A stretch of 59,944 nt of DNA from Candidatus Limnocylindrales bacterium (lineage in GTDB: Bacteria > Chloroflexota > Limnocylindria > Limnocylindrales > CSP1-4): NCBI GenBank assembly GCA_038230295.1, contig JBBRNM010000006.1, positions 1 through 59,944 on the forward strand, written 5' to 3'. Position numbers and translations under genes: made by a program. Positions within the stretch are counted from its first letter, which is position 1; the number at the start of each line of letters is the position of its first letter. Below the pieces are notes generated by a model. That model was given only the letters and a program-made list of their open reading frames with translations, was not told the origin of the DNA and did no database searches. Below are positions 1,734 through 16,642 of the stretch, piece after piece.

Positions 1734-3146
1734 TCAGCGTCCGGCTGCTGGCTCGGCATCCTCTCGTTCGACGACGATCCGGCCGAGGTCGGCACCTTCG
1801 AGGGCCGCCAGGAAGGCATCGGCGTCGCCGACGAGGACGATCGCGGCCGCATCGGGCCGGATGTGCGAGATCGCGGCGGCCTGGATGTCGGAGATCGAGA
1901 CCGCCTCGATCGCGGACCGATAGCGCACGAGCTCGTCGATCGGCAGGTCATGGACGACGAGCCCGGCGATCGCTCCCACCACCGCCGGCGGCGTCTCGAA
2001 TCGGAGCGGGAAGACCCCGACGAGGAAGTCGCGGGCGGCATGCCGCTCCGCGGGTTCGACCTCGGCGTCGCGAATGGAATTGAGCTCCGCGAGCATGTCG
2101 ATCGTCGCGGGGACCGTGACCTCGGTGTTGACGGCGGCGCGTGCCGCGAACGGGCCCGCGGCGCGTCGCAGCTCGTAGCCGGCGCTGGCGCCGTACGTGT
2201 AGCCCTTCTCCTCGCGGAGCTTCCGATTCAGGCGGGAGTTGAAGAGCCCGCCGAGGATCGCGCTCATGACCGAGAGCGCATGGAAGTCCTCGATGTGCCG
2301 AGACACCCCGACGTGCCCGATCCGGATCTCGGTCTGGACGGAGCCGGGTCGATGGAAGACGCGGACGAAGCGCTCACTGACTGCCGATTCCGCGTCGATC
2401 GCTCGCCGCGACTCGGCCGTCGGGCTCGCCATCCATGAGCCGAAGCGCGCGTGCGCCAGCTCCATCACGTCCATCCCGGTCAGGTCGCCGCCGACGATCA
2501 GCGTCATCGCGGCCGGGTCGAATCGCCGGCCATGGATGTCCGCGGCCGCGGCGGCATCGAGCCGCTCCACCGTCTCTCGTAGACCGGCGGCCGGGCGCCG
2601 GTACGGCGACCCAGCTGCATAGATCGTGTCGACGAACCCCTCGTCCGCCCGACGCCGCGGATCGGCCCGGGCCTGGAGCAGGTCGTTCAGGCGCTCCTCC
2701 CGAAGCCGTTGGACCTCGGTCGCCGGAAACGTCGGCTCGGCCATGACCTCGGCCACGAGATCGAGCGCCGGCCCGAGGCGCGCGACCGGCACGTCGACGC
2801 CCACCGATAGGGCATCCCAGCCGGCTTCGGCATGGAGCGAGGCGCCGAGACGTTCCGTAGCCTCGACAAGGGCGATCGCATCGTGGCGTTGCGTGCCCTC
2901 CGACAGGGCCCGGGCCATCAGGGTCGTGAGGCCGCCCTCGTCGTCACGTTCGTCGGCCGCCCCGGCCGGCAGCAGGAGCGAGGCGGTCACGAGCTCCCGG
3001 CCCGGAAGATCAACGGCAATGACGGTCAGACCGTTCGCGAGCCGCTGTCGGTCCACGACTGGGAAGTGATACGGCCGAGGCTCCCCGTGCGTCGGGCGCT
3101 CGGCGATCACGGTCGCGGCGCCGATCGCGGCGCCTGCGTCGGTCAT
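1734..3146 (-). CDS. M16 family peptidase, non-catalytic subunit
   Basis: LANGLTV, ILGGLFNSRLNRKLREEKGYTYG; no HxxEH; follows the catalytic M16 gene. Confidence 0.9.
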   Translation of the reverse strand: MTDAGAAIGAATVIAERPTHGEPRPYHFPVVDRQRLANGLTVIAVDLPGRELVTASLLLPAGAADERDDEGGLTTLMARALSEGTQRHDAIALVEATERLGASLHAEAGWDALSVGVDVPVARLGPALDLVAEVMAEPTFPATEVQRLREERLNDLLQARADPRRRADEGFVDTIYAAGSPYRRPAAGLRETVERLDAAAAADIHGRRFDPAAMTLIVGGDLTGMDVMELAHARFGSWMASPTAESRRAIDAESAVSERFVRVFHRPGSVQTEIRIGHVGVSRHIEDFHALSVMSAILGGLFNSRLNRKLREEKGYTYGASAGYELRRAAGPFAARAAVNTEVTVPATIDMLAELNSIRDAEVEPAERHAARDFLVGVFPLRFETPPAVVGAIAGLVVHDLPIDELVRYRSAIEAVSISDIQAAAISHIRPDAAAIVLVGDADAFLAALEGADLGRIVVEREDAEPAAGR

Positions 3147-3159
3147 GCTGCGGCCTCGG

Positions 3160-4464
3160 TCATGCGGCAGCCGGCTCGAGCTCGGCCGCGCCGGCCGGCA
3201 GATACGTCAGGACGACGCGGTTGTCGGCCCGGAACACGTCGGCGGATACACGTCGGATGTCCTCGGCGGTGACCGACAGGTAGCGCGGCAGCATGCGGTT
3301 GATCAGGTCGGGATCGTCGAAGAGCGTGGCGTACATCGACAGGCGGTCGGCTCGCTCGTCGACCCGCATCAATGCGCCCAGCTCGTCGGCCTCGGTCAAT
3401 GCCCGCGCTCGTTCCAGCTCGTCGGGCGAGATCGGCTCGCGCGTGATCCGCTCGAGCTCTTCCCAGAACACCGCCTCGAGCAGCTCGAGATCAGTGCCGG
3501 GTCGTGCGGTGGCCCAGCCGGCGGTCACGGAGGCGCCACCCGTGAAGCCCATCGAGAAGAGCGCCACGTCCTGCGCCAGTCGCTCATCGCGGACCAGCCG
3601 GCGATGGAGCCGGCTGCCCTTGCCGCCGGCGAGGATCTGGCCGGCGAGATCGAGCGCGTCGAGGCGCGGGTCGCCGTAGGCGGGCGCCCGGAACCCCCAG
3701 AACAGGCGCGGTAGCGGCACGCGATCCGGAACGATCTCGCGAATCTCGCCCCCGAGCGTCGCCGGGAGCGACAGGTCGGGCAGCTTGACAGGCAGGTTCG
3801 GATTCGCCGGGATGCCGCCGAAGTAGCGCGCGACCCACGTTCGGATCCTGGCGGACTCGACGTCGCCCACGATCGTGATCACGGCGTTATTGGGGGCGTA
3901 GTGCAGCCGGAAGAACGAGCTCACGTCCTCCAGCGACGCGGCGTCGAGGTCCTCCATCGATCCGATCGTCGGATGGTGGTAGGGATGGCTTTCGGGGAAG
4001 AGCGCCCCGAACATCCGCTCGCTCCATGATCCGTACGGCCGGTTGTCGTAGGACTGCCGCTTCTCGTTCTTCACGACCTCGCGCTGGTTGTCGAGGTTCT
4101 CCTGCGAGAGGGCATCGAGGAGGGTGCCCATGCGGTCGGCCTCGAGCCAGATCGCCAGCTCCACCTGGTGAGACGGCATCGTCTCGTAGTAGTTCGTCCG
4201 GTCGAGCCAGGTGCTGCCATTCATGACCCCGCCCGCGGCCTGGACGAGGGCCATGTGCTCCGCCTTGCCGACGTGAGCCGAGCCCTCGAACATGACGTGC
4301 TCGAAGAGGTGGGCGAAGCCCGTCTTGCCCGGCTGCTCGTGCTTGGAGCCAACGCCGTACCAGAGGTTGATCGCCGCGACCGGAACGAGGTGATCCTCGG
4401 CGATGATCAGCCGGAGGCCGTTGGGCAGGCGCTCATCACTGAACGTGACAATGGGGACAGGCAC
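3160..4464 (-). CDS. M16 family zinc peptidase (pitrilysin-like), catalytic subunit
   Basis: GFAHLFEHVMFEGS (HxxEH), NGSTWLDRTNYYE, REVVKNEKR. Confidence 0.93.
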   Translation of the reverse strand: MPVPIVTFSDERLPNGLRLIIAEDHLVPVAAINLWYGVGSKHEQPGKTGFAHLFEHVMFEGSAHVGKAEHMALVQAAGGVMNGSTWLDRTNYYETMPSHQVELAIWLEADRMGTLLDALSQENLDNQREVVKNEKRQSYDNRPYGSWSERMFGALFPESHPYHHPTIGSMEDLDAASLEDVSSFFRLHYAPNNAVITIVGDVESARIRTWVARYFGGIPANPNLPVKLPDLSLPATLGGEIREIVPDRVPLPRLFWGFRAPAYGDPRLDALDLAGQILAGGKGSRLHRRLVRDERLAQDVALFSMGFTGGASVTAGWATARPGTDLELLEAVFWEELERITREPISPDELERARALTEADELGALMRVDERADRLSMYATLFDDPDLINRMLPRYLSVTAEDIRRVSADVFRADNRVVLTYLPAGAAELEPAAA

Positions 4465-4499: not shown

Positions 4500-4782
4500 T
4501 CACGGGCCGATCTCGACGAACCCTGCCGCGCTGAAGTCGCCGTCGAACGCGAGCGCCTCGGTCATTCGTCGTTGACGCATCACGGCGAAGCTCGTGGCGT
4601 CGACGAACGAGTACGAGCGCTCATCGTGGCGATACAGCCAGGCCCAGGCGTCGGCCTCGGTGGCCTCGCCGACGTGAACGATGACCAACCGTCCCGACCG
4701 CTGCGCGCTCTGCGAACGCAATTGCCTCGGCATGGCCGAGGCGCCGCCGGAGGAACGTCCACATCTCGCCGATGACGGTATC
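4500..4782 (-). pseudogene. vapC: VapC (PIN) toxin remnant, VapC20-like, 5'-truncated and frameshifted
   Basis: DTVIGEMWTFLRRRLGHAEAIAF in one frame, then a shift near 4705 to VHVGEATEADAWAWLYRHDERSYSFVDATSFAVMRQRRMTEALAFDGDFSAAGF. The N-terminal DTS motif and a start are absent. Confidence 0.75.
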
Positions 4783-4863: not shown

Positions 4864-5250
4864 CTACGCGAGCTCGATATCGGTCTGGGAGAAATCGTCG
4901 CCCTTGGCGAGGAGCGGTTCGCCGGCAACCCGGGCAGCGGCGTAGGCGAGGCAATCCCCGAAGTTGAGGCTCGCGGGATGTCTCGATCGGCCGAAACGCC
5001 ACCAGGCCGAGAGGGCGGCCTCCCAATGATCGACGCCGAACTCGATCACGACGGCGTCGGCGACGGCGACCAGCTGGGCGACCAACTCGTGGGCATCCTC
5101 CCCGATCCGCGCGGATAGGACGATACCGGCCTCGACCAGCGTGGGCGCGCCGACCCCGACCGTGCTCGCCCCATTGATCTTCTCAACCAAAGCGCCACGG
5201 TCCGGTTCGTCAAGAGCGATGGCCACCAGGGCCGAGCTGTCGAGGATCAC
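4864..5250 (-). CDS. vapC: VapC PIN-domain ribonuclease toxin
   Basis: VILDSSALVAI...TLVEAGIV...HPASLNFGDCLAYA...KGDDFSQTD; the GTG start overlaps the vapB stop (GTGA). Confidence 0.93.
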   Translation of the reverse strand: MILDSSALVAIALDEPDRGALVEKINGASTVGVGAPTLVEAGIVLSARIGEDAHELVAQLVAVADAVVIEFGVDHWEAALSAWWRFGRSRHPASLNFGDCLAYAAARVAGEPLLAKGDDFSQTDIELA

Positions 5251-5728: not shown

Positions 5729-6718
5729 CCCCGGACTCCGGCACCTCGATCTGGCCGCACTGTGAGCTCCGTCCGGACGCGCGCTTCGACCTTGGTCGTC
5801 GCGCTCTCTGCGCTTGCGATCTCGGCCTGCTCAGCCAGCCCTCCGGCCCCGTCGATTGCACCCTCCCAGGTGTCGGCGCAGCCGTCCTCGACGATCGCGC
5901 CGACCCCGACGGCCTCCCCGGCCCTCACCCCGGGTGTCGGCACCTCGAGCGAAGACACGCTCGGCGTCTCGGTGCCCGCCGACACGGCGGCCGCGACGAT
6001 GCTCCATGTCCCGGTCCTCATGTATCACCGGGTCATGCCCCCGTCGCTGCTCAAGGTCGACGAACGGTGGCCCGACCTCTACGTCGATCCGGTGACGTTT
6101 GACGCTCAAATAGCGGCCATGAAGTCTCGGGGTTGGCACACAGTCACGACGGGCCAGCTGGCCGCCGCCGTCATGGCCCGGAGGAGCCTCCCGTCGCACT
6201 CCGTCGTCATCACCTTCGACGACGGCCGGCCGGACAACTACACCTACGCCTTCCCGATCTTGAAGAAATACGGCTTCGTCGCGACCTTCTTCATCGTCTC
6301 GGGTCGGATCGGAAGGACCAGCCACATCACGGCAAGCCAGCTCCAGGAGATGGCAGCCGCCGGGAACGAGCTCGCCGATCACACCTGGGACCACACCGAT
6401 CTCACGACCCTGACCTACGCCCAGGCGCGGTTCAGGATCCGGGCCGCCGCCGACGCCATCGAGTCGCTTGTCGGCGTTCGACCGACCACCTTGGCCTATC
6501 CCTACGGTCACTACGACTCGACCGTCCTGGCGGCCGCCGACGCCGAGGGAATGTACCTGGCCTTCACGGTCCATGCCGGGGCCTGGGAAAGCGCCGCCAC
6601 CCGGCTCTTCCAGCCGCGGCTCCGCGTCCAGGGCCTCGTCCGACAGGCCGATGGGAGCTACTCGGGCGGAACGACCGCGCAGCAGCTCCTCGCCCGGCTG
6701 GCACCGTATGCCGACTAA
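5630..6718 (+). CDS. Polysaccharide deacetylase (CE4/NodB) lipoprotein; the native start may be GTG 5762
   Basis: Lipobox AISAC, S/P/T linker, VPVLMYHRV, ITFDDG, DHTWDH, LAYPYG. Confidence 0.9.
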   Translation: MTRELVERARGGDREVFESPAAAVIGNLFNIAQPRTPAPRSGRTVSSVRTRASTLVVALSALAISACSASPPAPSIAPSQVSAQPSSTIAPTPTASPALTPGVGTSSEDTLGVSVPADTAAATMLHVPVLMYHRVMPPSLLKVDERWPDLYVDPVTFDAQIAAMKSRGWHTVTTGQLAAAVMARRSLPSHSVVITFDDGRPDNYTYAFPILKKYGFVATFFIVSGRIGRTSHITASQLQEMAAAGNELADHTWDHTDLTTLTYAQARFRIRAAADAIESLVGVRPTTLAYPYGHYDSTVLAAADAEGMYLAFTVHAGAWESAATRLFQPRLRVQGLVRQADGSYSGGTTAQQLLARLAPYAD

Positions 6719-6740
6719 ATCGAGCCCGTCGGCCGAAGAT

Positions 6741-6771
6741 GGAACGAATTCGGCGCTCGCATTCCCTCTAG
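6741..6771 (+). promoter_or_regulatory. Putative ECF promoter P1, copy 2 (autoregulatory, sigma-1)
   Basis: GGAAC-N18-CCCTCTAG about 40 nt upstream of the sigma GTG at 6813. Confidence 0.6.
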
Positions 6772-6812
6772 TGCACAACCGGCGCATCCTGCCGGCAACG
6801 AGGGACCAAGCC

Positions 6813-7367
6813 GTGCGGCGAGACCTGGTGCTACGAGCCCGAGGCGGCGATCGCGAGGCGTTCGCGAGCCTCGCCGCTGAGTCGGTCGGGCGGCTGTTCA
6901 ACATCGCCCAGCTCATGCTCCGGGACCGCGATCTCGCCGATGACGCCGTCCAGGAGACACTCGTCCTCGCGTGGCGGGACCTGAAAGGGCTGCGCGACCT
7001 CGACGGGTTCGATGCCTGGCTGCATCGAGTCCTCGTGCGATGCGTATACCGCGAGGCGAACCGTGAGCGACGGCACACGGTCCGCGCGGCCGTCGTGGGC
7101 GAGATCTCCTCGCATCCCGACGCCTCACGTGACGTCGAGAATCGCGACGCGCTGGATCGGGGCTTCCGACGCCTCAGGTCCGACCATCGAGCCGTCCTCG
7201 TCCTCCATCACTACCTCGGCCTCTCCGACGACGAAGCCGCGGCAGCCCTCTCGATCCCGACCGGAACGATCAAGTCGCGGCTCAGCCGCGCGACCTCGGC
7301 GCTTCGCTCGGAGCTCGACGCCGATGCCCGCTCAGCGGATCGCCTTGCCATGGAGTCCGTCCGATGA
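6813..7367 (+). CDS. ECF RNA polymerase sigma factor (sigma-1)
   Basis: GDREAF, ADDAVQETLVLAWR, FDAWLHRVLV (region 2); LHHYLGLSDDEAAAALSIPTGTIKSRLSRA (region 4); GAGGG RBS. Confidence 0.95.
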   Translation: MRRDLVLRARGGDREAFASLAAESVGRLFNIAQLMLRDRDLADDAVQETLVLAWRDLKGLRDLDGFDAWLHRVLVRCVYREANRERRHTVRAAVVGEISSHPDASRDVENRDALDRGFRRLRSDHRAVLVLHHYLGLSDDEAAAALSIPTGTIKSRLSRATSALRSELDADARSADRLAMESVR

Positions 7368-8737
7368 CCGCAGATCGCAACCTCGATCGTGAGCTTGGGT
7401 CGTGGTTCGCCGAGCAGGCGAGCTCCGTGCCGGCTGAGACGCTCCTGCAGCGCGGGCTCGAACGCGTGGCTGCGACGCGCCAGCGTCCGGGGTGGCTCGT
7501 GGGCGGCGTGGCGCTGCCCCGTCCGTTCGCGGCTCCGGCGATCGTGCCTGCCTGGGTGGTCATCCTCCTCATCGCGCTGGCGGCCGCGGCCGTCGTGGCG
7601 ACGGGCGCGCGGCTACTCCTGGCTCCGTCGCTGGCGATCGTCGAGACGTCGCCGATCCCCTCGACCTTCGTCGAGCCATCGGCGGCGCCGAGCCCGACGT
7701 CGACAGCGACGCCCTCGGGGCCACTCGGGGGAGGCCCGATCCTGGCCCATGAATTCAAGCGAATCAGCGACCCGGACCCTCACGGTGTCTTTGCCATCGA
7801 CGCGGGGACGGGCGCCCGGACGCTGCTCGGCACGTTGCCGGGCGAGGCCGTGACGGGCTCGTCCAATCCGTACACGTTCCAATTCAGTGCGGACCGCACC
7901 CATGTCCTCATCCTCGGTGGGTCGCTGCAGGCGCCGACCGCCGTGAGCCGGGCATTCGGGTTCATCGCCAGCGCCGATCTCGACCAAAGCTGCTGCAAGG
8001 ACGGCATGGAGTGGATCACGTTGTCGCCTCGCGGCGACCGAGTCGCGGCGATCCACGTGAGCCGATTCGATGCGACCATCGAGATCGTCATTCTCGATAT
8101 CGCGGGTGGCGGCATATCGCGACTTCCGCTGCCCGCGGGCATCGGCTGGGGCGGACCGCTCGCCTGGTCACCCGACGAAGCAGCATTGGTCGTGCCCGGC
8201 TGTCGGCCCTGCAACAAGGCGGCGACACCGACCGAGAAGCAGACATCGGATCACAGCCACATCTACGTCGTGCCAGTCGACGGTTCGCCGTGGCGCGAGC
8301 TCCTCGACGTCGACAACGGTGCTGCCATCGGCGCGGTGGCGCCCGACGGGAAGACGCTCGCGGTCGACACCTTCATCTGTGCGTCGGGCAGCTACATGCC
8401 CCGCTGCGACCCGTCCGAAGGCACGCACACCCTGAGCACCCTATCGCTCGCGGATGGCGTCCAGACGCCGCTCGGGGTCGTGCCCTCGCTCACCGGCATC
8501 GCCTGGTCGCCGGATGGCACCCGGATCGCGTACGGGGCGAAGGACGGGATCCACGTCATGAACGCAGACGGCAGTGGCACGGTCAAGCTCGGCGACGGCG
8601 TCGGCTACGGTGCCGACTGGTCGCCCGACGGCCAATGGCTCCTTCTCAGGCGCGACGGCTTCGACCTGTGGATCGCCTCCGCCGATGGAAGCGACCTGCG
8701 GCAGATCGGAACGGGCTATGCCGGAGGGACCTGGTGA
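7364..8737 (+). CDS. Putative membrane anti-sigma factor with an extracytoplasmic TolB/PD40 beta-propeller
   Basis: ATGA overlap with the sigma gene; ~45-aa cytoplasmic N-terminus, one TM helix, S/P/T linker, WSPDG-type repeats. Confidence 0.8.
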   Translation: MTADRNLDRELGSWFAEQASSVPAETLLQRGLERVAATRQRPGWLVGGVALPRPFAAPAIVPAWVVILLIALAAAAVVATGARLLLAPSLAIVETSPIPSTFVEPSAAPSPTSTATPSGPLGGGPILAHEFKRISDPDPHGVFAIDAGTGARTLLGTLPGEAVTGSSNPYTFQFSADRTHVLILGGSLQAPTAVSRAFGFIASADLDQSCCKDGMEWITLSPRGDRVAAIHVSRFDATIEIVILDIAGGGISRLPLPAGIGWGGPLAWSPDEAALVVPGCRPCNKAATPTEKQTSDHSHIYVVPVDGSPWRELLDVDNGAAIGAVAPDGKTLAVDTFICASGSYMPRCDPSEGTHTLSTLSLADGVQTPLGVVPSLTGIAWSPDGTRIAYGAKDGIHVMNADGSGTVKLGDGVGYGADWSPDGQWLLLRRDGFDLWIASADGSDLRQIGTGYAGGTW

Positions 8738-8801
8738 CCGGGCTACTGCGCGATCGCAAGCGCCCGCCAGCTACTGCAACGCATCGAGAGAGGAGGGCCC
8801 C

Positions 8802-10127
8802 GTGACATCCAGCGGAACTCGCGCCGTCACGACCTTGATCGCGATCACCGCGCTCGTCATGTCCGCTTGCACGGGCGTTGTCACGACGTCATCCCCAGCC
8901 TCGCAGACATCGTTGCCGACGTCGGCGCCGCCGTCATCGACCTCCGCGCCACTTCCGACGGCCTCCCCGTCCCTCCCACAGGGTGTCGGCACCTGGAGCG
9001 CCACGGGCAGCATGGTTTCAGCCCACGGCCCGGAGTCCACGGCGACCCTGTTGGCCGACGGCAAGGTGCTCGTCGCGGGGGGCGAGGACGAGTCAGCAGG
9101 GGGTAGCGGCAACGTATCCGTGACGGCCGCCGCCGAGCTCTACGACCCGAGTACCGGGCAATGGACGGCGACGGGCGACATGACGATGTCGCGCTCCCAG
9201 CACACCGCGACCCTGCTTCAAGACGGCAGGGTCCTCGTGGCGGGCGGCGTCTGTTCAAAGCGATGCCCGGCAAAATTTGATCCCGACCTTGATCCCTCCG
9301 GAGCGGTCGCCACTGCGGAGATCTACGACCCGCGCACCGGCAAGTGGAACGTCACGGGGAGCATGACGACGCCCCGCGCACTGCACACGGCAACCCTCCT
9401 TGCCGACGGCAAGGTCCTGGTGGCCGGAGCCGAACACGCGGACGAGAATTTTGGCTGGCCCGAACCCTTCGCTCGGGGAATCCTTGCCTCCACCGAGCTC
9501 TACGACCCGGGCACCGGGAAGTGGACCGCGACCGGCAGCATGACCACGCCGCGGACCCAGCAACTCGCCGCACTGCTCCGTGACGGCAAGGTCCTGGTGG
9601 TGGGGGGCATCGGGCCGGTGTCTCCAACGGCACACGATGTCCTGGCCTCCGCCGAGGTCTACAACCCGGCCACCGGGAAATGGACGGCCACCGGCCGCCT
9701 GACGACGGCGCGCGCGTATGGAGCGGCGGCCACCATCCTCAAGGATGGCAAGGTCCTCCTGACAGGCGGTGACGGTCCCGGTGACCCCAACCTGGCCTCG
9801 GCCGAGCTCTACGACCCGCTCAGTGGGACATGGACGACGACGGGCAGCATGGCCACGGCACGCGGCGTGCTCGCCGCAACCCTGCTCGCCGATGGCAAGG
9901 TCCTGGTCTCGGCTGGCTGTGATTGCGGGGGGCCCGGCCCTTTGCTGGCGTTCGCCGAGATCTACGACCCGAGCAGCGGGACATGGACGGCCGCCGCAAG
10001 CCTGATCACCGCGCGTTGGGGGCACACCGCCACCCTGCTCAAGAACGGCAAGGTCCTCGTGGCGGGCGGGGGCACTAATGGCGGATCGGCGTCGTCCGCC
10101 GAGCTCTATGACGAAGCGGGGACCTGA
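8802..10127 (+). CDS. Kelch-repeat lipoprotein 1
   Basis: GAGGAGG RBS, lipobox VMSAC, about 6 repeats of HTATLLxDGKVLVAGG...AELYDP..G.W. Confidence 0.9.
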   Translation: MTSSGTRAVTTLIAITALVMSACTGVVTTSSPASQTSLPTSAPPSSTSAPLPTASPSLPQGVGTWSATGSMVSAHGPESTATLLADGKVLVAGGEDESAGGSGNVSVTAAAELYDPSTGQWTATGDMTMSRSQHTATLLQDGRVLVAGGVCSKRCPAKFDPDLDPSGAVATAEIYDPRTGKWNVTGSMTTPRALHTATLLADGKVLVAGAEHADENFGWPEPFARGILASTELYDPGTGKWTATGSMTTPRTQQLAALLRDGKVLVVGGIGPVSPTAHDVLASAEVYNPATGKWTATGRLTTARAYGAAATILKDGKVLLTGGDGPGDPNLASAELYDPLSGTWTTTGSMATARGVLAATLLADGKVLVSAGCDCGGPGPLLAFAEIYDPSSGTWTAAASLITARWGHTATLLKNGKVLVAGGGTNGGSASSAELYDEAGT

Positions 10128-10379
10128 GCCCGCGCGAGCTCGAGCGTCCCCGAACCCTTTAGACCGGTCGTCCGCGCACCGCAAAGGGATTCGACAGCCT
10201 CTCCCTGACCGCCGACGGCGCGCTCTGTGGCGCCGTCGCGTTCCACCAAGCGGCCGCGGCCGAGGGCATTGGGGCCTAGTGACGGTCTCGGAAACGTTGG
10301 TGCCATCGTGCTGGGTGTGGTGAGCCGTCCTGACCGCCCCGAGCGGCGGCGGAAGCGTCGACCTTCTGGTGCGAATTTG

Positions 10380-10407
10380 CCAACCGGGGCGCGCGCGCAG
10401 ACATCAG
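10380..10407 (+). promoter_or_regulatory. Putative ECF promoter P2, copy A
   Basis: CCAACC-N15-ACATCAG upstream of TolB-like gene 1; matches three other copies. Confidence 0.6.
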
Positions 10408-10458
10408 TGGGTCGAGGGGTCCGTGTGGGATTCCGGACGACGACGCTTGATGGAGGCG

Positions 10459-11610
10459 ATGGTGACAGGCCGAACGATGCTACGAACCAGCCGGGTCGTG
10501 AACGTGGTCGCTGTTCTCTTTCTGGCAGCATGCACCGGGGCGGCGCCTACTCCTTCTGGGACAGAGTCCCCGGCTGCTCCGTCAACGGCGACCCCGTTGG
10601 CGGAGGCATCGCCGTCGTCGACGCCCAGCGGAAGCCAGGCGACAGCGACGAAGCTCGGGGGCCAGATCGTGTTCGAGAACGTCGGTGACGACGCGGCTCA
10701 TTCGCAGGTCTGGGTCGAGAACGCTGACGCCTCGCAAGCACGCCAGCTCGTTACCGATTCGTTCAGCGACGGTGAGCCCGCACTATCGCCCGACGGCAAG
10801 ACCGTGGCCTTTGATCAGTCCCGCGGCGTCCCCATAGACGCCATGCTCGCCGATCCCGGCGTGGACGGCGGCATCATGCTGGTCAACGTCGACGGCTCGG
10901 GCCTTCACCGACTCGCGACACACTTGGGTATCCGCAACAAGTGCGGCGACGGAATCGAAGGCGACGCGTTTTCGCCGGATGGACGAACGCTCGTGTTCAC
11001 GCGGCTCTGCGTCACGGGCTCGTTTGGTCTCTGGATCGCGGCCGTCGATGGCTCAGACGAGCGCGAGGTCACCAGAAGCACGACGTCGCCCCAGGTCCTC
11101 CGTCGGTTCCTTCGCGACGGAATCGGATTTGTTCACCTCGAGGATCATCGCGCGACCTGGTCACCCGACGGGAAGCACTTGGTCTTCGAGCGGATCGACA
11201 CGTCGACGACACCGGAACGTGCCGCCATCTTCACGATCGCGGTCGACGGTTCCGACCTTCGCCAGGTGACAGATTGGTCCGTTGACGGGAACGACCCGGA
11301 CTGGTCGCCAGATGGAAGGCTGATCGTCTTCAATGCCCCTGCGGAGGAAGGTGGCGAGCAGAACATCTACACGATCCATCCCGACGGCTCCGGCCTGACG
11401 AAGCTCACTGATTTCAAAGGGACGGACCAGACGACGTTCCACCCGTCGTGGTCGCCGGACGGTAGGCACATCCTCTTCTCGCACAGCCCCGCGACGGACG
11501 GCTTCGTCGACTTACTCGTCATGAACGCCGACGGGACGGACCGTCATGCCCTCGCCGCGACGAAGATCCACGAGAACCACGCCTTCTGGGGGCCGAGTCC
11601 GAGTCCATGA
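10459..11610 (+). CDS. TolB-like (PD40) beta-propeller lipoprotein 1
   Basis: Lipobox LAAC, linker, repeats PALSPDG/AFSPDG/TWSPDG/PDWSPDG/PSWSPDG. Start uncertain (10450-10477). Confidence 0.85.
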   Translation: MVTGRTMLRTSRVVNVVAVLFLAACTGAAPTPSGTESPAAPSTATPLAEASPSSTPSGSQATATKLGGQIVFENVGDDAAHSQVWVENADASQARQLVTDSFSDGEPALSPDGKTVAFDQSRGVPIDAMLADPGVDGGIMLVNVDGSGLHRLATHLGIRNKCGDGIEGDAFSPDGRTLVFTRLCVTGSFGLWIAAVDGSDEREVTRSTTSPQVLRRFLRDGIGFVHLEDHRATWSPDGKHLVFERIDTSTTPERAAIFTIAVDGSDLRQVTDWSVDGNDPDWSPDGRLIVFNAPAEEGGEQNIYTIHPDGSGLTKLTDFKGTDQTTFHPSWSPDGRHILFSHSPATDGFVDLLVMNADGTDRHALAATKIHENHAFWGPSPSP

Positions 11611-11644
11611 ACAGCGTGCGACAGAGCGGCGAGGCAACTTTGGG

Positions 11645-11672
11645 CCAACCGCTGAACGAGCGCGTGCATCAA
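11645..11672 (+). promoter_or_regulatory. Putative ECF promoter P2, copy B (autoregulatory, sigma-2)
   Basis: CCAACC-N15-GCATCAA about 60 nt upstream of sigma-2. Confidence 0.7.
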
Positions 11673-11731
11673 TGGTGCATGGACAGAACGCGTGGCCGGG
11701 TGACCGACCGGGCAGGTCAGGCGCAGGACTG

Positions 11732-12307
11732 ATGGAGCCGGTCGCGGTCGTGAACCGCGCGCTCGTCTCGACCGAGTCGGCGTTCGTCCGCCGCGCCGCC
11801 AAAGGCGATGCAGGCGCCTTCGAACAGCTCGTCGCGACGAGGTCTCAGCATGCATTTCGAATCGCGCGAGCCATCCTCGGCAACGACGCCGACGCGCGCG
11901 ATGCGACGCAGGATGCCCTCGTCTCGGCCTGGAGGCAGCTCCCGAGTCTCCGCGATCCGGAGAGCTTCGACGCGTGGCTCCGGAGGATCCTGGTGAACGC
12001 GTGCCAGGCGCAGATCCGCAGCCGTCGCCATGTTCGCGAGATCAGTCTCGATGACTCGTTCGATCGCAAAGCGCCCGGCCCGGGGATCGCTGAGCAGGTC
12101 GGCGACACCGAAGTGCTCAGCAAGGCGTTCGACCGACTCGACGTCGAGAAGCGATCGATCCTCGTCCTCCATTACCTCAACCACGAACCCGTCGCTTCGA
12201 TCGCCACCGACCTGAAGATCCCGAGTGGGACCGCGAAGTGGCGGCTTTCCGAGGCGCGCGCGGCGTTGCAACGTGCCCTCACGGCAGAAGGCGAGGCCCG
12301 ATCGTGA
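11732..12307 (+). CDS. ECF RNA polymerase sigma factor (sigma-2)
   Basis: GDAGAFEQL, DARDATQDALVSAWRQLPSLRDPESFDAWLRRILVN, IPSGTAKWRLSEAR. Confidence 0.95.
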   Translation: MEPVAVVNRALVSTESAFVRRAAKGDAGAFEQLVATRSQHAFRIARAILGNDADARDATQDALVSAWRQLPSLRDPESFDAWLRRILVNACQAQIRSRRHVREISLDDSFDRKAPGPGIAEQVGDTEVLSKAFDRLDVEKRSILVLHYLNHEPVASIATDLKIPSGTAKWRLSEARAALQRALTAEGEARS

Positions 12308-13707
12308 CCGCGCGACGACCCGTGCTGACCGATTCGATGATCGAGCGAATGCTCGTCGAGCGAGCAGGTGCCGAAACGCCCGCCGACCTGACGCAGGGTA
12401 TTCTCCGGGCCGCCGCGGCCGTCCGACAGAACCGGCGAACACCATTCCTGCCCGCGCTTCCCGACCGGCGCACACAGGTGCTGCTCGCCGCGGCCGTGGT
12501 CGGGCTCCTCGTGCTCGCGACCGCTCTCGCCTTGACCGGAGCGTCGCGCCTCTTCCGGGTTCAGCAACTCGTTGTGGCGCCGACTTCGTCGCCGACGCTG
12601 ATCGTCGACGCGTCGCCGTCGGCGGCGCCTATCGCCTTGAGTACACCAGGACCGACCCAGAGTGCGCTGATCGCGTTCCCGACCCGACCTGGGATGCTCG
12701 AGTCGATCGCTGACTTCCTCGTGGCCTCAGACACAGTCGGCTGGGTCAGGACGAATGTGCCTGCTGCGATTTACCGAACGACGGACCTGGGCTCCACGTG
12801 GACGGAGGTTCGACCGCCGGGTTGGTCAGCCGCTGCCGCGGCTGCTTTCGTCGACGTCGACACGATGTACGCAGAGGCCGCGGGGACCATCTCGGCGACG
12901 CACGACGGTGGGGTGACATGGGTCGACGTGGCCGTGGATAAGGCTCTGATCTCAGGCCGGGCTGACTTCACGTTCCGCACCGCTACGGATGCCTACGCAA
13001 CGTTTCCCGCGGAGGGCGCCGACCCCCTCCTCGTGTACCACACGACGGACGGCGGCAGGACTTGGACGGGACCCCTGGCCGGAAAGGTGCCGCACTTGGA
13101 GGCGAGCATGGGGAAGGTGGCGGGGCCACACGGCGAGTTCCTCCTCCAAAGCGCGGGTAAGTTCCCGAACAAACCATTCGACAACCGATTCTTCCTCTCG
13201 GCAGACGGGGGTGTGACTTGGACGGAATACACCTTCCCGATCAGGGTTGGGTCGCCGGCGAATTCGATGAAGTCGGTGTCGGCCATCGACCGCGAAGACA
13301 ATGGACGCCTCCTCGTTTCGATCCGGATCAGTCCCGACGGTCAGCTTGATCTCCCGGACGCGATCTACGAGAGTGGCGGCGATACGGCTACCTGGCGCCT
13401 CATCGAGCAGCTGCCGCTCGGCGCATCAGTTCAATTCCTCTCACCCACCGATTGGGTGCGATTCTCCAACGCGCCGTCGGCGATCGCCTGGACCGTCGAC
13501 GCGGGCGGCCACTGGGAGTCGATCAGTCCGTCAACCTCGCTCTACGACTTTCAGCCCGAGGCGGCGCATCAGTTCGCGACAACGAGAACGGGTTGGGCGA
13601 TCAAGCAGTGCGGATTTTCGGCTGCTGCGGGCTGCACGGACCCCCACGCCACACTGCTGTTCGGGACCAGAGATAGCGGAGCTTCGTGGACGCAGGTCGG
13701 GAAGTGA
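12304..13707 (+). CDS. Putative membrane anti-sigma factor with an Asp-box/BNR beta-propeller
   Basis: GTGA overlap with sigma-2; TM helix VLLAAAVVGLLVLATALAL; repeats TTDLGSTW, THDGGVTW, TTDGGRTW, SADGGVTW, TVDAGGHW, TRDSGASW. Confidence 0.8.
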   Translation: MTARRPVLTDSMIERMLVERAGAETPADLTQGILRAAAAVRQNRRTPFLPALPDRRTQVLLAAAVVGLLVLATALALTGASRLFRVQQLVVAPTSSPTLIVDASPSAAPIALSTPGPTQSALIAFPTRPGMLESIADFLVASDTVGWVRTNVPAAIYRTTDLGSTWTEVRPPGWSAAAAAAFVDVDTMYAEAAGTISATHDGGVTWVDVAVDKALISGRADFTFRTATDAYATFPAEGADPLLVYHTTDGGRTWTGPLAGKVPHLEASMGKVAGPHGEFLLQSAGKFPNKPFDNRFFLSADGGVTWTEYTFPIRVGSPANSMKSVSAIDREDNGRLLVSIRISPDGQLDLPDAIYESGGDTATWRLIEQLPLGASVQFLSPTDWVRFSNAPSAIAWTVDAGGHWESISPSTSLYDFQPEAAHQFATTRTGWAIKQCGFSAAAGCTDPHATLLFGTRDSGASWTQVGK

Positions 13708-14978
13708 ACTGGCAACGGTCCGCCGCTGCGACCGACCTCAACCGCCCGTGGCTCGCGCTCCTGGGAGCCGTCGGATTGCTCACGGCCGCATGTGCCCCGT
13801 CGGTCGCGGCTCCGGGACCATCGGCCTCTCCACGAGTCGTAATATCCACGACGTTCGCAGCGTCTACGTCGCAGCCATCGTCCCGCGCAACTCCAACTTC
13901 CTCGGTCCCCGCCTCTGCATGGGCCACCGTCGGCTCGATGAGCACGCCTCGGGTCGAGTTCACGGCAACATTGCTTCGCGACGGCAAGGTCCTTGTCGCC
14001 GGCGGATTCGCGAATGGCAACGGCGAGGACCCGCGCGCGTCGGCCGAACTCTACGATCCCCAAACGCGATCGTGGAGTCCGACCGGGCCTATGCGCGAGG
14101 CGAGAGCGGGTCAATCCGCGACGCTGCTCCCCGACGGGAACGTGCTCATAGCTGGCGGCGACAGCAGCCCAGGGGCCCCGCTCGCCTCAGCAGAGCTCTA
14201 CAACCCCTTGCGCGGGGCATGGACGGCAGTCAAGCCGATGGGTAGCGCTCGAAGTGACCACACCGCGACACTGCTTCGAAACGGGAAGGTCATCATTGCC
14301 GGCGGGTCGACGGCGGATGGACCCACTGCGTCAACAGAGATCTACGATCCGCAAGGGGGGACGTGGTCCCGCGGCCCAACCATGGCGGTCGCCCGTGCCG
14401 TTCGTACCGCAAACCTCCTTCCCGACGGTCGCGTCCTTATCACCGGAGGCGTTGGCCGTGGATCGGTCGGGCTGTCTTCGTCAGAGCTCTATAACCCGAT
14501 CTCAAATTCGTGGCGCAACGCACGCGCGATGAACAGCATTCGTGCGGCTCACACCTCCACGCTCCTGGCGGTCGGCCGCGTGCTCGTCGCGGCCGGGCTG
14601 AGCGGCGGTTTCGCGGGCGACCTCAACTTGAGCGAAATCCTCGCGTCGGCCGAGCTCTACGACCCGCGCACGGACTCCTGGACGATGACAGGGAGCATGG
14701 AGGCTGCGCGGTTCCAGTACCCCGCAATCATCCTGGCGGACGGCAGGGTGGTAGCGATCGCCGGAGACACCCTCGGCCCGGGTCCGCTCGCCTCGGTCGA
14801 GATCTACGACCCCAGCGAGGGATCATGGACGACGATTCAGGCAGTGATCGAGGGCCGTGCAGCTGCGGTTGCGATCACCCTGCGGGACGGCGATGTCCTC
14901 GTCGTTGGTGGTGAGGGTCCGGGCGCTTCGGGACTCGCCTCCGCGGAACTGTTCAATCCCGCCCTACCCACCACGTGA
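13704..14978 (+). CDS. Kelch-repeat lipoprotein 2
   Basis: GTGA overlap; lipobox TAAC; repeated TATLLxDGxVLVAGG...AELYDP. Confidence 0.9.
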   Translation: MNWQRSAAATDLNRPWLALLGAVGLLTAACAPSVAAPGPSASPRVVISTTFAASTSQPSSRATPTSSVPASAWATVGSMSTPRVEFTATLLRDGKVLVAGGFANGNGEDPRASAELYDPQTRSWSPTGPMREARAGQSATLLPDGNVLIAGGDSSPGAPLASAELYNPLRGAWTAVKPMGSARSDHTATLLRNGKVIIAGGSTADGPTASTEIYDPQGGTWSRGPTMAVARAVRTANLLPDGRVLITGGVGRGSVGLSSSELYNPISNSWRNARAMNSIRAAHTSTLLAVGRVLVAAGLSGGFAGDLNLSEILASAELYDPRTDSWTMTGSMEAARFQYPAIILADGRVVAIAGDTLGPGPLASVEIYDPSEGSWTTIQAVIEGRAAAVAITLRDGDVLVVGGEGPGASGLASAELFNPALPTT

Positions 14979-15013
14979 CGCAACCCCGCTCGGGACGTTG
15001 CTGAGAAATATCC

Positions 15014-15041
15014 CCAACCGACGCCGCGGCCGTGGCATCAA
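15014..15041 (+). promoter_or_regulatory. Putative ECF promoter P2, copy C
   Basis: CCAACC-N15-GCATCAA. Confidence 0.65.
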
Positions 15042-15122
15042 GGCGGTATAGGCCGTAGTCGGCGAACGAGCCCTCGTCTCGAGGATCAGCGGATGGAGCC
15101 CGTCGCGTCCTCGGAAAGAGGT

Positions 15123-15150
15123 CCAACCGCTCGGTCGCTGGAAGCATCAA
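15123..15150 (+). promoter_or_regulatory. Putative ECF promoter P2, copy D
   Basis: CCAACC-N15-GCATCAA about 60 nt upstream of TolB-like gene 2. Confidence 0.7.
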
Positions 15151-15213
15151 CGGATCAGTAAAGGCGATAGGAGACAAATCCGGGGTCGTCCCGCGGTCCT
15201 GAGGAGGCGACTC

Positions 15214-16371
15214 ATGTGGTCCCGGAGATTTCACCCGAAGAGCGCAGCCGTGATCGCTGCGGCCATCGTCGCCGCTGCCTGCTCATCTGCCGGACCAGCG
15301 ACGGCGCCGCTCGGCTCGACCCCGGGCGCGACTTCGGCCGGCCTCGTCACGTCCCCATCGCCGCGGCCTTCACCGCCGGCATCGGGGCCATCGCCCGCGC
15401 CGTCGGAATCGACGACGGTCGGAGCCGGCGAGGAGTGGGTCGTCTTCCAGTCCCTGGCCGACCAGTTCGACCCGGCCGCTGACCAGGATGGGATTGAGCA
15501 TGACGACACGATCTTCCTGGTTCGGACCGATGGCACAGGACTTCATCGACTCCCGCCCGTTGACCTCGTCGGGTCGGAGATTCGGCCCCGCTGGTCACCG
15601 GACGGAAACCAGATCGCCTTCATCCGCGGCCACCTGCCCGGTGACATCAATGAGCTCTGGATCATCAACGCCGACGGCAGCGGCGGAAGGGCCGTGTACA
15701 CGTGCGGCCCGGGGTGCAACACCATCGGGAACCCCGACTGGAGCCCCGATGGCAAGGCCCTCTTCTTCGAGGGCGACTCTGACGTCCCAGCCGAGGGCCC
15801 CCCTCGCACCTTCCAGATGTTCCGGTATGACCTCGCGACCCACGAGACCAAGCCGGCGTTCACTCGTCACGACACGATGACCGCCGAGCAGATGGCGTTG
15901 TCACCGGATGGCACGCAGGTCGTCTTCAGCCGCGGGAAGCGGGACGCCGAGACCCAGAACGCCCTTTTCGTCGCCGATTCGAATGGCGCTCACGAGCGCC
16001 GAATTACCGCGTGGGGCATGGCGGTGGCATATCCCGGATGGTCGGTCACTGGCCGCATCGTCTTCAACACCCACGACCTCCGCGCCGACCCGACGACAAC
16101 GGCCGCCGCGAACATCTACACGATCAACCCGGACGGGAGCAACCTGCGGCAGCTGACGTCGTACCACGCCAACGACACGCGAGCCACCCAGCCGCGCTGG
16201 ACGCAGGACGGACGAGGGATCGTTTACACGCTCGTCACCCGCGACGCCTTCGACCCATACGGCGTGCGCACCTTGGCCTACATGGACGCGGACGGCAGCC
16301 ATGCACGTCTCCTGACCCCCGAACCGATCATCGGGACGCACCCGGAGCTGCGGCCGATCCCACGTTCCTGA
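15214..16371 (+). CDS. TolB-like (PD40) beta-propeller lipoprotein 2
   Basis: GAGGAGG RBS, lipobox AAAC, repeats PRWSPDG/PDWSPDG/ALSPDG. Confidence 0.88.
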   Translation: MWSRRFHPKSAAVIAAAIVAAACSSAGPATAPLGSTPGATSAGLVTSPSPRPSPPASGPSPAPSESTTVGAGEEWVVFQSLADQFDPAADQDGIEHDDTIFLVRTDGTGLHRLPPVDLVGSEIRPRWSPDGNQIAFIRGHLPGDINELWIINADGSGGRAVYTCGPGCNTIGNPDWSPDGKALFFEGDSDVPAEGPPRTFQMFRYDLATHETKPAFTRHDTMTAEQMALSPDGTQVVFSRGKRDAETQNALFVADSNGAHERRITAWGMAVAYPGWSVTGRIVFNTHDLRADPTTTAAANIYTINPDGSNLRQLTSYHANDTRATQPRWTQDGRGIVYTLVTRDAFDPYGVRTLAYMDADGSHARLLTPEPIIGTHPELRPIPRS

Positions 16372-16642
16372 CGAGCCGGCGTTCGACGCGGCCGGAGCAA
16401 GGCTCAGCCGGGCGCCCCAGAGGCGACCAGCGACGCGGCGTTTCCGGAAGGAGCGGCCGAGCGAGACGCGAGCCACTCGCCGAGGGGTCGAACTTAGAAA
16501 AGGCGGTCGATGACGTTCCTCGGCCTCGCACGGATATTTTCCTAGGTGTTCTGCGACTCGGATGCTCAAGACCCGCGTGCCTGTCAGCTCCGGTTGAACA
16601 AACCGAACCGGACGCGATCAACGAGCACCCGACGGTCCCGCG

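Follow-up and report, generated by a model that had tools for sequence, protein, structure and literature searches.

Putative ECF promoters ahead of sigma-2 and exported beta-propeller genes in a Limnocylindrales bacterium

The window analyzed here is a 59,944-nt stretch of contig JBBRNM010000006.1 (assembly GCA_038230295.1, Candidatus Limnocylindrales bacterium), and all window features described below lie on its + strand. At its center of interest is sigma-2 (11732-12307), which encodes an ECF (group IV) sigma factor of 191 aa with Pfam matches to Sigma70_r2 (6e-14), Sigma70_r4_2 (1.6e-7), and Sigma70_ECF (6.7e-5) and a score of 82.5 bits against the NCBIfam ECF family model TIGR02937 (cut-off, 42.9). 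None of the equivalog-level models attained its cut-off against sigma-2, and the nearest solved chains are ECF SigE, SigW, and SigH; alignment shows the start at 11732 (MEP...) to be common to the orthologs. The start of the next gene (12304-13707) overlaps the sigma-2 stop (GTGA). Its product starts with some 55 residues on the cytoplasmic side, spans the membrane with a single helix, and exposes outside the cytoplasm a BNR/sortilin/Ycf48-like propeller, which gives weak Pfam matches to Sortilin-Vps10, BNR_2, BNR, and PSII_BNR (E values from 7e-9 to 6e-4), the last three falling below cut-off. Residues 1 to 60 match no Pfam or NCBIfam model, known anti-sigma domains (ZAS/RsrA-like, RskA, and others) included, and an N-terminal LTDxxIERMLxxRAG block is kept in 4/4 orthologs, the ectodomains of which differ; from position, topology, and this conserved block, we infer that the product is the anti-sigma factor of sigma-2. 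Kelch-2 follows (13704-14978; alternative start, 13686), a Kelch-repeat beta-propeller protein (Pfam Kelch_1, 5e-44) that is probably a lipoprotein (...LLTAAC). The anti-sigma stop and the Kelch-2 start overlap in GTGA, and co-transcription with sigma-2 is therefore probable.

This group of genes is flanked by PD40-1 (10450-11610; Pfam PD40, 1.3e-23) and PD40-2 (15214-16371; Pfam PD40, 2e-15), which encode beta-propeller proteins of the PD40 type (WD40-like in PD40-1) that are 31% identical to each other, and both of which are probable lipoproteins. The true start of PD40-1 lies between 10450 and 10477, and its signal peptide (...VLFLAAC) has what we take, by eye, to be a lipobox; the corresponding sequence of PD40-2, a gene preceded by GAGGAGG, is ...IVAAAC. 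A reading made earlier from the sequence only had named these genes TolB-like 1 and TolB-like 2, which overstates the resemblance: against the NCBIfam TolB model TIGR02800 they score 98.5 and 70.2 bits, far below the equivalog cut-off of 343, and the matches cover just profile positions ~235-418 of 418 (241-418 for PD40-1), i.e., the propeller half. Pfam finds only PD40 repeats in the two proteins, and we rejected their assignment as TolB of the Tol-Pal system.

For contrast, a second module (module 1, 6741-10127), which we do not count in the regulon, lies upstream. It consists of a GGAAC box (6741-6745) 72 nt before the start of sigma-1 (6813-7367; 39% identical to sigma-2), a putative anti-sigma-1 gene with a weak PD40 match (7364-8737), and Kelch-1 (about 8835-10127; 44% identical to Kelch-2). 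The two putative anti-sigma factors are unrelated in sequence.

The sequence-only reading had reported four exact copies of the bipartite motif CCAACC-N15-RCATCAR, and we recovered all four, all on the + strand, with none in 100 dinucleotide-preserving shuffles of the window. Copy 1 (10380-10407) ends in ACATCAG and precedes PD40-1 by 43 to 70 nt, depending on the start; copy 2 (11645-11672) ends in GCATCAA and lies 87 nt before the sigma-2 ATG; and copies 3 (distal, 15014-15041) and 4 (proximal, 15123-15150) precede the PD40-2 ATG by 173 and 64 nt, copy 3 beginning 36 nt past the Kelch-2 stop. Copies 1 and 2 fall inside program-made open reading frames (10369-11610 and 11546-12307), but the real starts of PD40-1 and sigma-2 are downstream, so that all four copies are intergenic, as had been claimed. 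The spacers are indeed unrelated (4 to 8 of 15 positions identical in pairwise comparison), and so are the upstream flanks (12 to 16 of 40). The G that follows CCAACC holds for all four copies in the window and for 10 of 20 sites in relatives. When up to three mismatches were allowed, 36 matches were found in the window against 33 expected; there is thus no cloud of degenerate copies around the exact ones. ECF promoters combine an AAC-containing -35 element with a short, C-rich -10 element at rigid spacing, and one copy typically stands before the sigma factor's own gene. Every copy here has the geometry AAC-N17-CATC, with -10 regions GACATC, TGCATC, GGCATC, and AGCATC, and this 17-nt distance, which matches the fixed separation usual in ECF promoters, supports reading the motif as a promoter. 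In copy 1, the boxes and spacing of which are those of the sites in relatives, the predicted -35 box is 10380-10385 and the -10 core CATC is 10402-10405.

A pattern scan of the whole genome (2,440,026 bases in 162 contigs; GC, 0.70), the check that the sequence-only reading had proposed, returned five strict copies; 20 first-order-Markov genomes averaged 0.05 copies, and none had more than 1. All five lie outside the genes called by a crude GC3-based caller (88% coding) and point at the next gene. The looser core CCAACC-N16-CATC occurs 15 times (3.2 ± 2.2 simulated), with 6 sites non-coding and 9 within called genes (about 3 expected), and the other core spacings scanned (N12, N14, N15, N17, N18, and N20) give 2 to 5 sites each, compared with 15 for N16. 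The fifth strict copy, at 220-247 on the - strand of contig C49, has C after CCAACC and stands so close to the ATG of its gene that a transcript would have almost no leader; the motif precedes none of four homologues of its gene in other genomes. With a position weight matrix built solely from relatives' sites, copy 4 scores best in the genome and copy 3 second. No sigma-70-like promoters or Rfam families were found in 6400-16600.

Among relatives (Limnocylindrales-type MAGs of the Chloroflexota), C[CG]AACC-N15-xCATC stands within 200 nt upstream of the sigma gene in 7/12 sigma-2-like loci of other genomes (L043-L054), with a chance, calculated from base composition, of ~6e-4 per 150-nt region. 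The orthologous sigma genes have the motif 85 to 100 nt upstream and share a TGGT after the -10 box. We gathered 20 sites from relatives by regular expression; CCAACC is exact in 18 of them, but conservation of the core boxes in this set is partly by construction, and related genomes are non-independent samples. Positions 27, 29, and 32 played no part in site selection and are A or T in 18/20, 17/20, and 17/20 sites, respectively (genome A+T, 30%), whereas spacer positions carry 0.01 to 0.43 bits each. In each of the 17 loci from relatives that bear the motif there is a single ECF gene, and its product is 44 to 67% identical to sigma-2 and 34 to 44% identical to sigma-1, nearer to sigma-2 in every case. 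In a scan of the genus, same-strand pairs of CCAACC-N15-GCATC within 5 kb were found in 9/61 genomes; with a loose pattern, per-genome counts were just slightly above those of a reversed-pattern control, and the clustering alone is striking. Three previously unseen loci, chosen by motif pairs alone, all proved to encode an ECF sigma factor and an anti-sigma factor with a PQQ_2 propeller, and all three have PQQ_2/NHL propeller genes behind the motifs. Finally, the order motif, propeller gene, motif, propeller gene, sigma, anti-sigma recurs in at least eight related loci; the usual arrangement is thus for sigma to be immediately preceded by a propeller gene with a motif of its own.

Taken together, these comparisons make it very probable that CCAACC-N15-RCATCAR is a promoter read by RNA polymerase carrying sigma-2 and serving sigma-2 itself and exported beta-propeller genes. 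Points on the other side are the core sites inside called genes, the C49 copy with its motif-free homologues, the slight excess over control in the genus scan, and a -10 box that departs from the ECF128s2 consensus (CATC, not CGTC). The proposal that this is the sigma-2 promoter gains support from the autoregulatory position of copy 2, from conservation, and from the sigma-2-like ECF gene in 17/17 loci, and its extension to both PD40 genes agrees with the placement of copies 1, 3, and 4 and with the propeller genes behind motifs in relatives. The same reading had left a choice between cross-wired modules and a PD40-1 that belongs to the sigma-2 module; given the gene order in the at least eight related loci, the evidence favors PD40-1 as a member of the sigma-2 unit, and cross-wiring with the sigma-1 module need not be invoked.

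A promoter of ECF type might still be recognized chiefly, or in addition to sigma-2, by another ECF paralog, such as sigma-1 or the closest sigma-2 paralog in the genome (C61; 49% identical), in a cross-regulated cluster that has no private sigma-2 regulon. The genome has 13 ECF-like matches; the C61 paralog and its orthologs have a promoter architecture like that of sigma-2 with slightly different boxes, a parallel that also speaks for the promoter reading itself, and the putative C61 promoter (CGAACC-N15-GCATCGA) is only two specified positions off the window motif at identical spacing. Two sigma-2 orthologs (L044 and L053) likewise have CGAACC instead of CCAACC, and the gap between Kelch-1 and PD40-1 holds no terminator-like site, which might allow read-through from the sigma-1 operon. 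We nevertheless consider this explanation unlikely, as the ECF of motif-bearing loci is sigma-2-like throughout, and the C61-type boxes, found ~70 nt upstream in 8/30 loci ([CTA]GAAC[CG]-N15-GCATCGA; L001-L030), start with [CTA]GAAC and end with GCATCGA, unlike the window copies, where CCAACC and CATCA occur in all four. Moreover, sigma-1-like genes have a position-conserved signature of their own (xGAAC at -72 to -76 in 11/18), and the sigma-2 motif was found within 200 nt upstream of none of the 18.

A conserved bipartite motif ahead of co-regulated genes could in principle also be the operator of a repressor or activator that is not a sigma factor. This is much less probable still: the motif is asymmetric, being neither a palindrome nor a direct repeat, it is always directed at the downstream gene, its upstream box contains AAC and keeps the spacing of ECF promoters, it lies 43 to 173 nt before start codons, an ECF gene accompanies it in every locus examined, and these gaps yielded no sigma-70-like promoter on which such a regulator might act. 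Duplication did occur here, as the modules are tandem paralogs in their Kelch, PD40, and sigma genes, and one could picture the copies as functionless remnants of it, or as chance matches; yet the boxes are exact amid unrelated flanks and spacers, zero matches are expected by chance, the boxes are retained in other genomes, and module 1 has no copy of the motif, and we give this account hardly any credence.

If the motif is the sigma-2 promoter, CCAACC would be the -35 box contacted by sigma region 4 and CATC(A) the -10 box contacted by sigma region 2, with transcription predicted to begin ~8 to 10 nt after CATC at the four sites, near A10415, A11679, A15048, and A15157. Sigma-2 would be tethered at the membrane by the single-pass product of 12304-13707, with its BNR/sortilin-like propeller outside, until an envelope signal sets it free. 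It would then transcribe PD40-1 from 10380, possibly reading on into sigma-2; the sigma-2/anti-sigma-2/Kelch-2 operon from 11645, in positive feedback; and PD40-2 from two promoters in tandem (15014 and 15123), so that the regulon would yield a few beta-propeller lipoproteins, all exported. The inducing signal, the function of the propellers, and the binding of the anti-sigma factor to sigma-2 are inferred parts of this model. Such a circuit would be of an ordinary bacterial kind, here in an uncultured Chloroflexota lineage. A bolder and rather doubtful conjecture is that one kind of ECF module has been amplified in this genus, with an exported beta-propeller as its sensor (the anti-sigma ectodomain) and exported beta-propellers as its entire output, possibly for modular surface recognition and not as a classical stress regulon. 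The anti-sigma N-terminus and CCAACC-N16-CATC would be kept fixed as ectodomains are swapped, drawing on PD40, Kelch, BNR, PQQ_2/BamB-like, and NHL propellers. Were this true, the propellers under control of the sigma factor might serve as partners of the sensor propeller, or as decoys for it, closing an extracytoplasmic feedback loop.

The systems RpoE-RseA and SigW-RsiW pair a two-domain sigma factor with a co-transcribed membrane anti-sigma factor, have a promoter before their own operon, and control a small envelope-related regulon. The sigma-2 module shares this canonical autoregulated layout; it differs in that the anti-sigma N-terminus fits no known anti-sigma domain model and in that the predicted regulon consists of beta-propeller lipoproteins only.

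According to the classification of ECFs by Casas-Pastor et al. 2021 (PMC7826278), these sigma factors usually autoregulate, and the group entries of its supplement offer several partial parallels. Two of them, ECF29 and ECF255, have a predicted -10 that contains CATC (CATCCAAT and GCATCT), so a CATC-type -10 has precedent among ECFs, but their -35 elements (GGGAACCT and TATGGAT) and their regulators differ. ECF39 (the type of sigma-E of Streptomyces coelicolor) and ECF51, envelope-related ECFs of high-GC Gram-positives, resemble sigma-2 in the -35 (CAACC and GCAACCG, respectively) and in a CGTC-type -10; however, that -10 is CGTC or GCGTGTC where CATC stands here, several ECF39 subgroups are controlled by two-component systems, and the entries for the two groups describe no BNR or propeller anti-sigma factor. 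Among the groups listed, the closest described type is ECF128s2, with CCAACC in the -35, GGCGTC in the -10, and at +1 a single-pass anti-sigma factor with a BNR/Asp-box, sortilin, or YCF48 ectodomain (PMC7826278 supplement). The differences from that entry are that A replaces the G of CGTC in every window copy, that ECF128s2 is described there for Actinobacteria only and the present system belongs to the Chloroflexota (nearest loci, Chloroflexia, Chloroflexota, or Limnocylindrales), and that an ATP-grasp gene occupies +2 where the Kelch lipoprotein gene is found here. The likeness lies in the CCAACC of the -35, exact in all four window copies; in a -10 that is G-rich and then C-x-T-C (GGCGTC there, [G]GCATC here); in a putative anti-sigma factor at +1 with a single helix and a cytoplasmic N-terminus that has no Pfam domain; and in the three ectodomain families of that entry, all of which match the 12304-13707 protein.

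An exact search of the 59,944-base window for the bipartite motif CCAACC-N15-RCATCAR (predicted -35 box CCAACC, predicted -10 box CATC) returned four + strand copies, at 10380, 11645, 15014, and 15123, and none of 100 dinucleotide-preserving shuffles of the window contained any match, which bears out the number given in the sequence-only reading. When up to 3 mismatches were allowed, 36 matches were found against 33 expected; the four exact copies therefore stand alone. Their flanks and spacers are unrelated, as that reading had also claimed for the spacers, in a register-based comparison of the four promoter regions that was used instead of an uninformative MAFFT alignment. The genome-wide scan it had proposed was performed on the assembly (2.44 Mb, 162 contigs, 70% G+C, 92% complete) and yielded five strict matches, the fifth on the minus strand of contig C49 (C49:220-247), compared with a mean of 0.05 in 20 simulated first-order-Markov genomes. 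All five are non-coding according to a crude third-position-GC gene caller made for this analysis (2,283 genes, 88% coding). The core CCAACC-N16-CATC occurs 15 times in the genome (6 of them non-coding) versus 3.2 ± 2.2 in simulations, and with spacers of 12, 14, 15, 17, 18, or 20 nt the two boxes are found 2 to 5 times each. An A is found 8 to 10 nt after CATC in every window copy, and A10415, A11679, A15048, and A15157 are the predicted start sites; among 20 sites from relatives, 12 have A at position 36. In this 70% G+C genome, A/T-rich bits (AATTTG, AACTTTG, AAATATC, and GAAAGAG) also adjoin CCAACC on its 5' side in all four copies (10369-10379, 11634-11644, 15003-15013, and 15112-15122); they may represent an extended -35 or UP-like element, and in relatives A/T is weakly enriched at positions -5 to -3 (10 to 12 of 20 sites).

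Gene identities, assigned from Pfam, NCBIfam, and N-terminal translations, gave two tandem modules. Module 1 consists of sigma-1 (6813-7367), the putative anti-sigma-1 (7364-8737; single-pass, with a weak PD40 match), which begins in an overlap with the stop of sigma-1, and Kelch-1, which ends at 10127. Between motif copies 1 and 2 lies PD40-1 (10450/10477-11610), with a signal peptide and lipobox. Directly after copy 2 comes module 2: sigma-2 (11732-12307), the putative anti-sigma-2 (12304-13707; single-pass, with a BNR/sortilin/Ycf48-like ectodomain), and the lipobox protein Kelch-2 (13704-14978). Copies 3 and 4 follow, and then PD40-2 (15214-16371), which has a lipobox and a good Shine-Dalgarno sequence. 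Start and stop codons overlap by 4 bases at sigma-2/anti-sigma (GTGA, 12304-12307), anti-sigma/Kelch-2 (GTGA, 13704-13707), and sigma-1/anti-sigma (ATGA, 7364-7367), signs of translational coupling inside operons. A sodium/calcium-exchanger gene on the opposite strand converges on the cluster; upstream, the minus strand carries M16 peptidase genes at 1734-3146 and 3160-4464 and a PIN-domain gene at 4864-5250, and the latter may form a toxin-antitoxin pair with the small open reading frame beside it (4500-4733). The name TolB-like, previously given to PD40-1 and PD40-2, did not hold up, as the matches of both are confined to TolB's propeller half and score far below the TolB cut-off; by their domain matches, they are better described as PD40 propeller lipoproteins. 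Identity between the modules is 39% for the sigmas, 44% for the Kelch proteins, and 31% for the PD40 proteins, with no detectable similarity between their membrane proteins, and judged by these values, the modules are old paralogs. Closer paralogs of sigma-2 are encoded elsewhere in this genome, on contigs C61 (49% identical) and C12 (43%).

The motif had been read as the sigma-2 promoter, and comparison with relatives supports this assignment. Each of 17 motif-bearing loci in relatives contains exactly one ECF gene by local tblastn, and in all 17 its product is nearer sigma-2 (44 to 67%) than sigma-1 (34 to 44%). Sigma-1 belongs to a far larger paralog swarm in the genus, with hundreds of matches at an E value of ≤1e-30 in 53 of 61 genomes, and no sigma-2-type motif was found within 200 nt upstream of the 18 sigma-1-like genes with usable upstream sequence. 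In 11 of these 18 upstream regions (L085-L102), xGAAC is present at -72 to -76, as it is for sigma-1 itself (GGAAC at -72; window 6741-6813), followed after ~16 nt, as judged by eye, by GTCT/GCT and a CATCTA/CTCTAG block; the xGAAC signature probably marks a separate family of autoregulated promoters.

The loci nearest to this one are in public genomes titled Chloroflexia, Chloroflexota, or Candidatus Limnocylindrales. Of 36 genomes from the same genus, 32 have sigma-2-like genes, and none was detected at an E value of ≤1e-20 in 24 small genomes of a sister family. In 7 of 12 loci (L043-L054), the 200 nt preceding the sigma gene contain C[CG]AACC-N15-xCATC, at a distance of 85 to 100 nt in 5 of the 7 (87 nt in the window); one of the 5 motif-less loci ends at a contig edge. 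The ortholog at L031 (the L045 locus; 68% identical) carries a second motif copy in front of a divergent PD40 gene. Across 20 relatives' sites, the spacer is nearly information-free; these sites were chosen by regular expression, so the invariance of their core boxes is partly circular, and related genomes are non-independent samples. Constraint is also seen at positions that the expression left free, with A/T at positions 27 (18 of 20), 29 (17 of 20), and 32 (17 of 20).

In a second clade of sigma-2-like genes (44 to 50% identical), the order of elements is constant at L032, L033, L034, L035, and L037: motif, PQQ_2/BamB-like propeller gene, motif, NHL propeller gene, ECF sigma, and anti-sigma with a PQQ_2 ectodomain. 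This cassette recurs at L109, L110, and L111, the last of which has an additional motif and a second NHL gene downstream of the anti-sigma gene; at L036 the order is motif, sigma, anti-sigma, motif, and a gene with vanadium-chloroperoxidase-like (VCPO) domains. To avoid the circularity of the regular-expression sites, we also scanned 61 genomes of the genus for CCAACC-N15-GCATC. Per-genome counts barely exceed those of a reversed-pattern control, and many matches are one conserved coding sequence; with the loose-pattern count not clearly above control, clustering alone was used. Same-strand motif pairs no more than 5 kb apart occur in 9 of the 61 genomes, where the rough chance expectation is well below one, and all three previously unseen pair loci have the complete cassette: an ECF sigma, an anti-sigma with PQQ_2, and PQQ_2/NHL genes downstream of the motifs.

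A standard ECF circuit is the most likely working of the cluster, and the mechanism of such circuits is textbook knowledge that would not surprise a specialist. The putative anti-sigma-2, a membrane protein, would hold sigma-2 until its propeller ectodomain senses a signal; released sigma-2 would then transcribe its own operon (with Kelch-2) as well as PD40-1 and PD40-2. We infer transcription starts, sigma-2 dependence, anti-sigma binding, the role of the propellers, and expression. The first 30 residues of the putative anti-sigma-2 (LTDxxIERMLxxRAG..., window 12304-12400) are conserved in 4 of 4 orthologs, which fits an anti-sigma domain that would bind sigma-2. The ectodomain varies among these orthologs: that of the window protein is BNR-like, L043 has PD40, L046 has DUF6923, and no domain was detected in L045. 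This pattern suggests that ectodomains are swapped while the anti-sigma head stays constant.

Two arrangements had been offered to explain a sigma-2 motif in front of PD40-1: either the modules are cross-wired or PD40-1 belongs to module 2. Sigma genes of the second clade lack a motif of their own and start ~27 to 40 nt after the NHL gene; a propeller gene and sigma forming one unit is thus common in relatives, and we therefore place PD40-1 with sigma-2 and set cross-wiring aside. No sigma-70-like promoters or Rfam matches were found in the cluster region, and its two terminator-like sites are both within PD40-1. With none in the intergenic stretches that follow Kelch-1 and PD40-1, transcription of module 1 may run on into PD40-1, and that of PD40-1 into sigma-2. 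Crosstalk is a further possibility, between sigma-2 promoters and the sigma of the C61 paralog (C61:3859-4453, minus strand; L038), whose matched region is preceded at ~40 nt by CGAACC-N15-GCATCGA. Orthologs of this paralog carry [CTA]GAAC[CG]-N15-GCATCGA ~70 nt upstream in 8 of 30 loci (L001-L030), in what looks like a sister promoter specificity with the same geometry and slightly different boxes, and these sites support reading the motif as one of a family of ECF promoters. Between the PD40-2 promoters, 15092-15107 matches the sigma-2 start region (11731-11746) at 15 of 16 nt; we rejected its reading as a relic of a third sigma gene, as 53 of 1170 real-sequence control windows reach an equal local score and its distance to the motif is off by 8 nt.

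A genome scan with a position weight matrix built from the relatives' sites revealed no further regulon members: beyond the four window copies, the C49 copy, and the C61 paralog site, all top matches listed lie within called genes. The spacer columns add noise to this matrix, and the 11645 copy scores only 13.5. The C49 copy (C49:207-247, minus strand; L039) precedes by 10 nt the ATG of a gene, truncated at the contig end, for a small multi-pass membrane protein, and an mRNA from it would be almost leaderless; its status as a promoter is uncertain because the motif is absent upstream of the homologs (~150 aa) in four further genomes of the genus (0 of 4). A non-coding core match at C22:11398 was not counted as a promoter, as it faces opposite-strand genes in a stretch without called genes.

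Taken together, the observation is confirmed and its interpretation supported, for a well-known kind of system. The analysis provides a concrete predicted promoter (boxes, spacing, and four natural variants) for an ECF sigma of Limnocylindria-type Chloroflexota, a lineage known here from metagenome assemblies only, and a wiring of the cluster that groups PD40-1 with sigma-2, apart from module 1. It also points to a genus-wide pattern of numerous propeller-sensing, propeller-producing ECF modules, consistently tied to exported beta-propeller proteins. Sigma-2 passes only the general ECF model in NCBIfam, and we liken it to ECF128s2 by that group's description rather than its profile; our literature search found no paper combining ECF, anti-sigma, propeller, and Chloroflexi. 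In the available part of the ECF reclassification (PMC7826278) and its supplement, ECF128s2 is given as restricted to Actinobacteria, with CCAACC at -35 and GGCGTC at -10 (supplement), and its +1 gene encodes a single-pass protein with an N terminus lacking a Pfam domain and a BNR/Asp-box, sortilin, or YCF48 ectodomain. The same material lists CAACC-type -35 boxes for ECF39, ECF51, ECF21, and ECF37 and CATC-type -10 boxes for ECF29 and ECF255. As far as that description goes, the sigma-2 promoter and neighboring +1 protein closely match ECF128s2, whereas the A in CATC, the phylum, and the +2 gene differ. The ECF128s2-like type of promoter and anti-sigma, in that source a prediction for Actinobacteria only, would thus extend to Chloroflexota, with the -10 box altered by one base.
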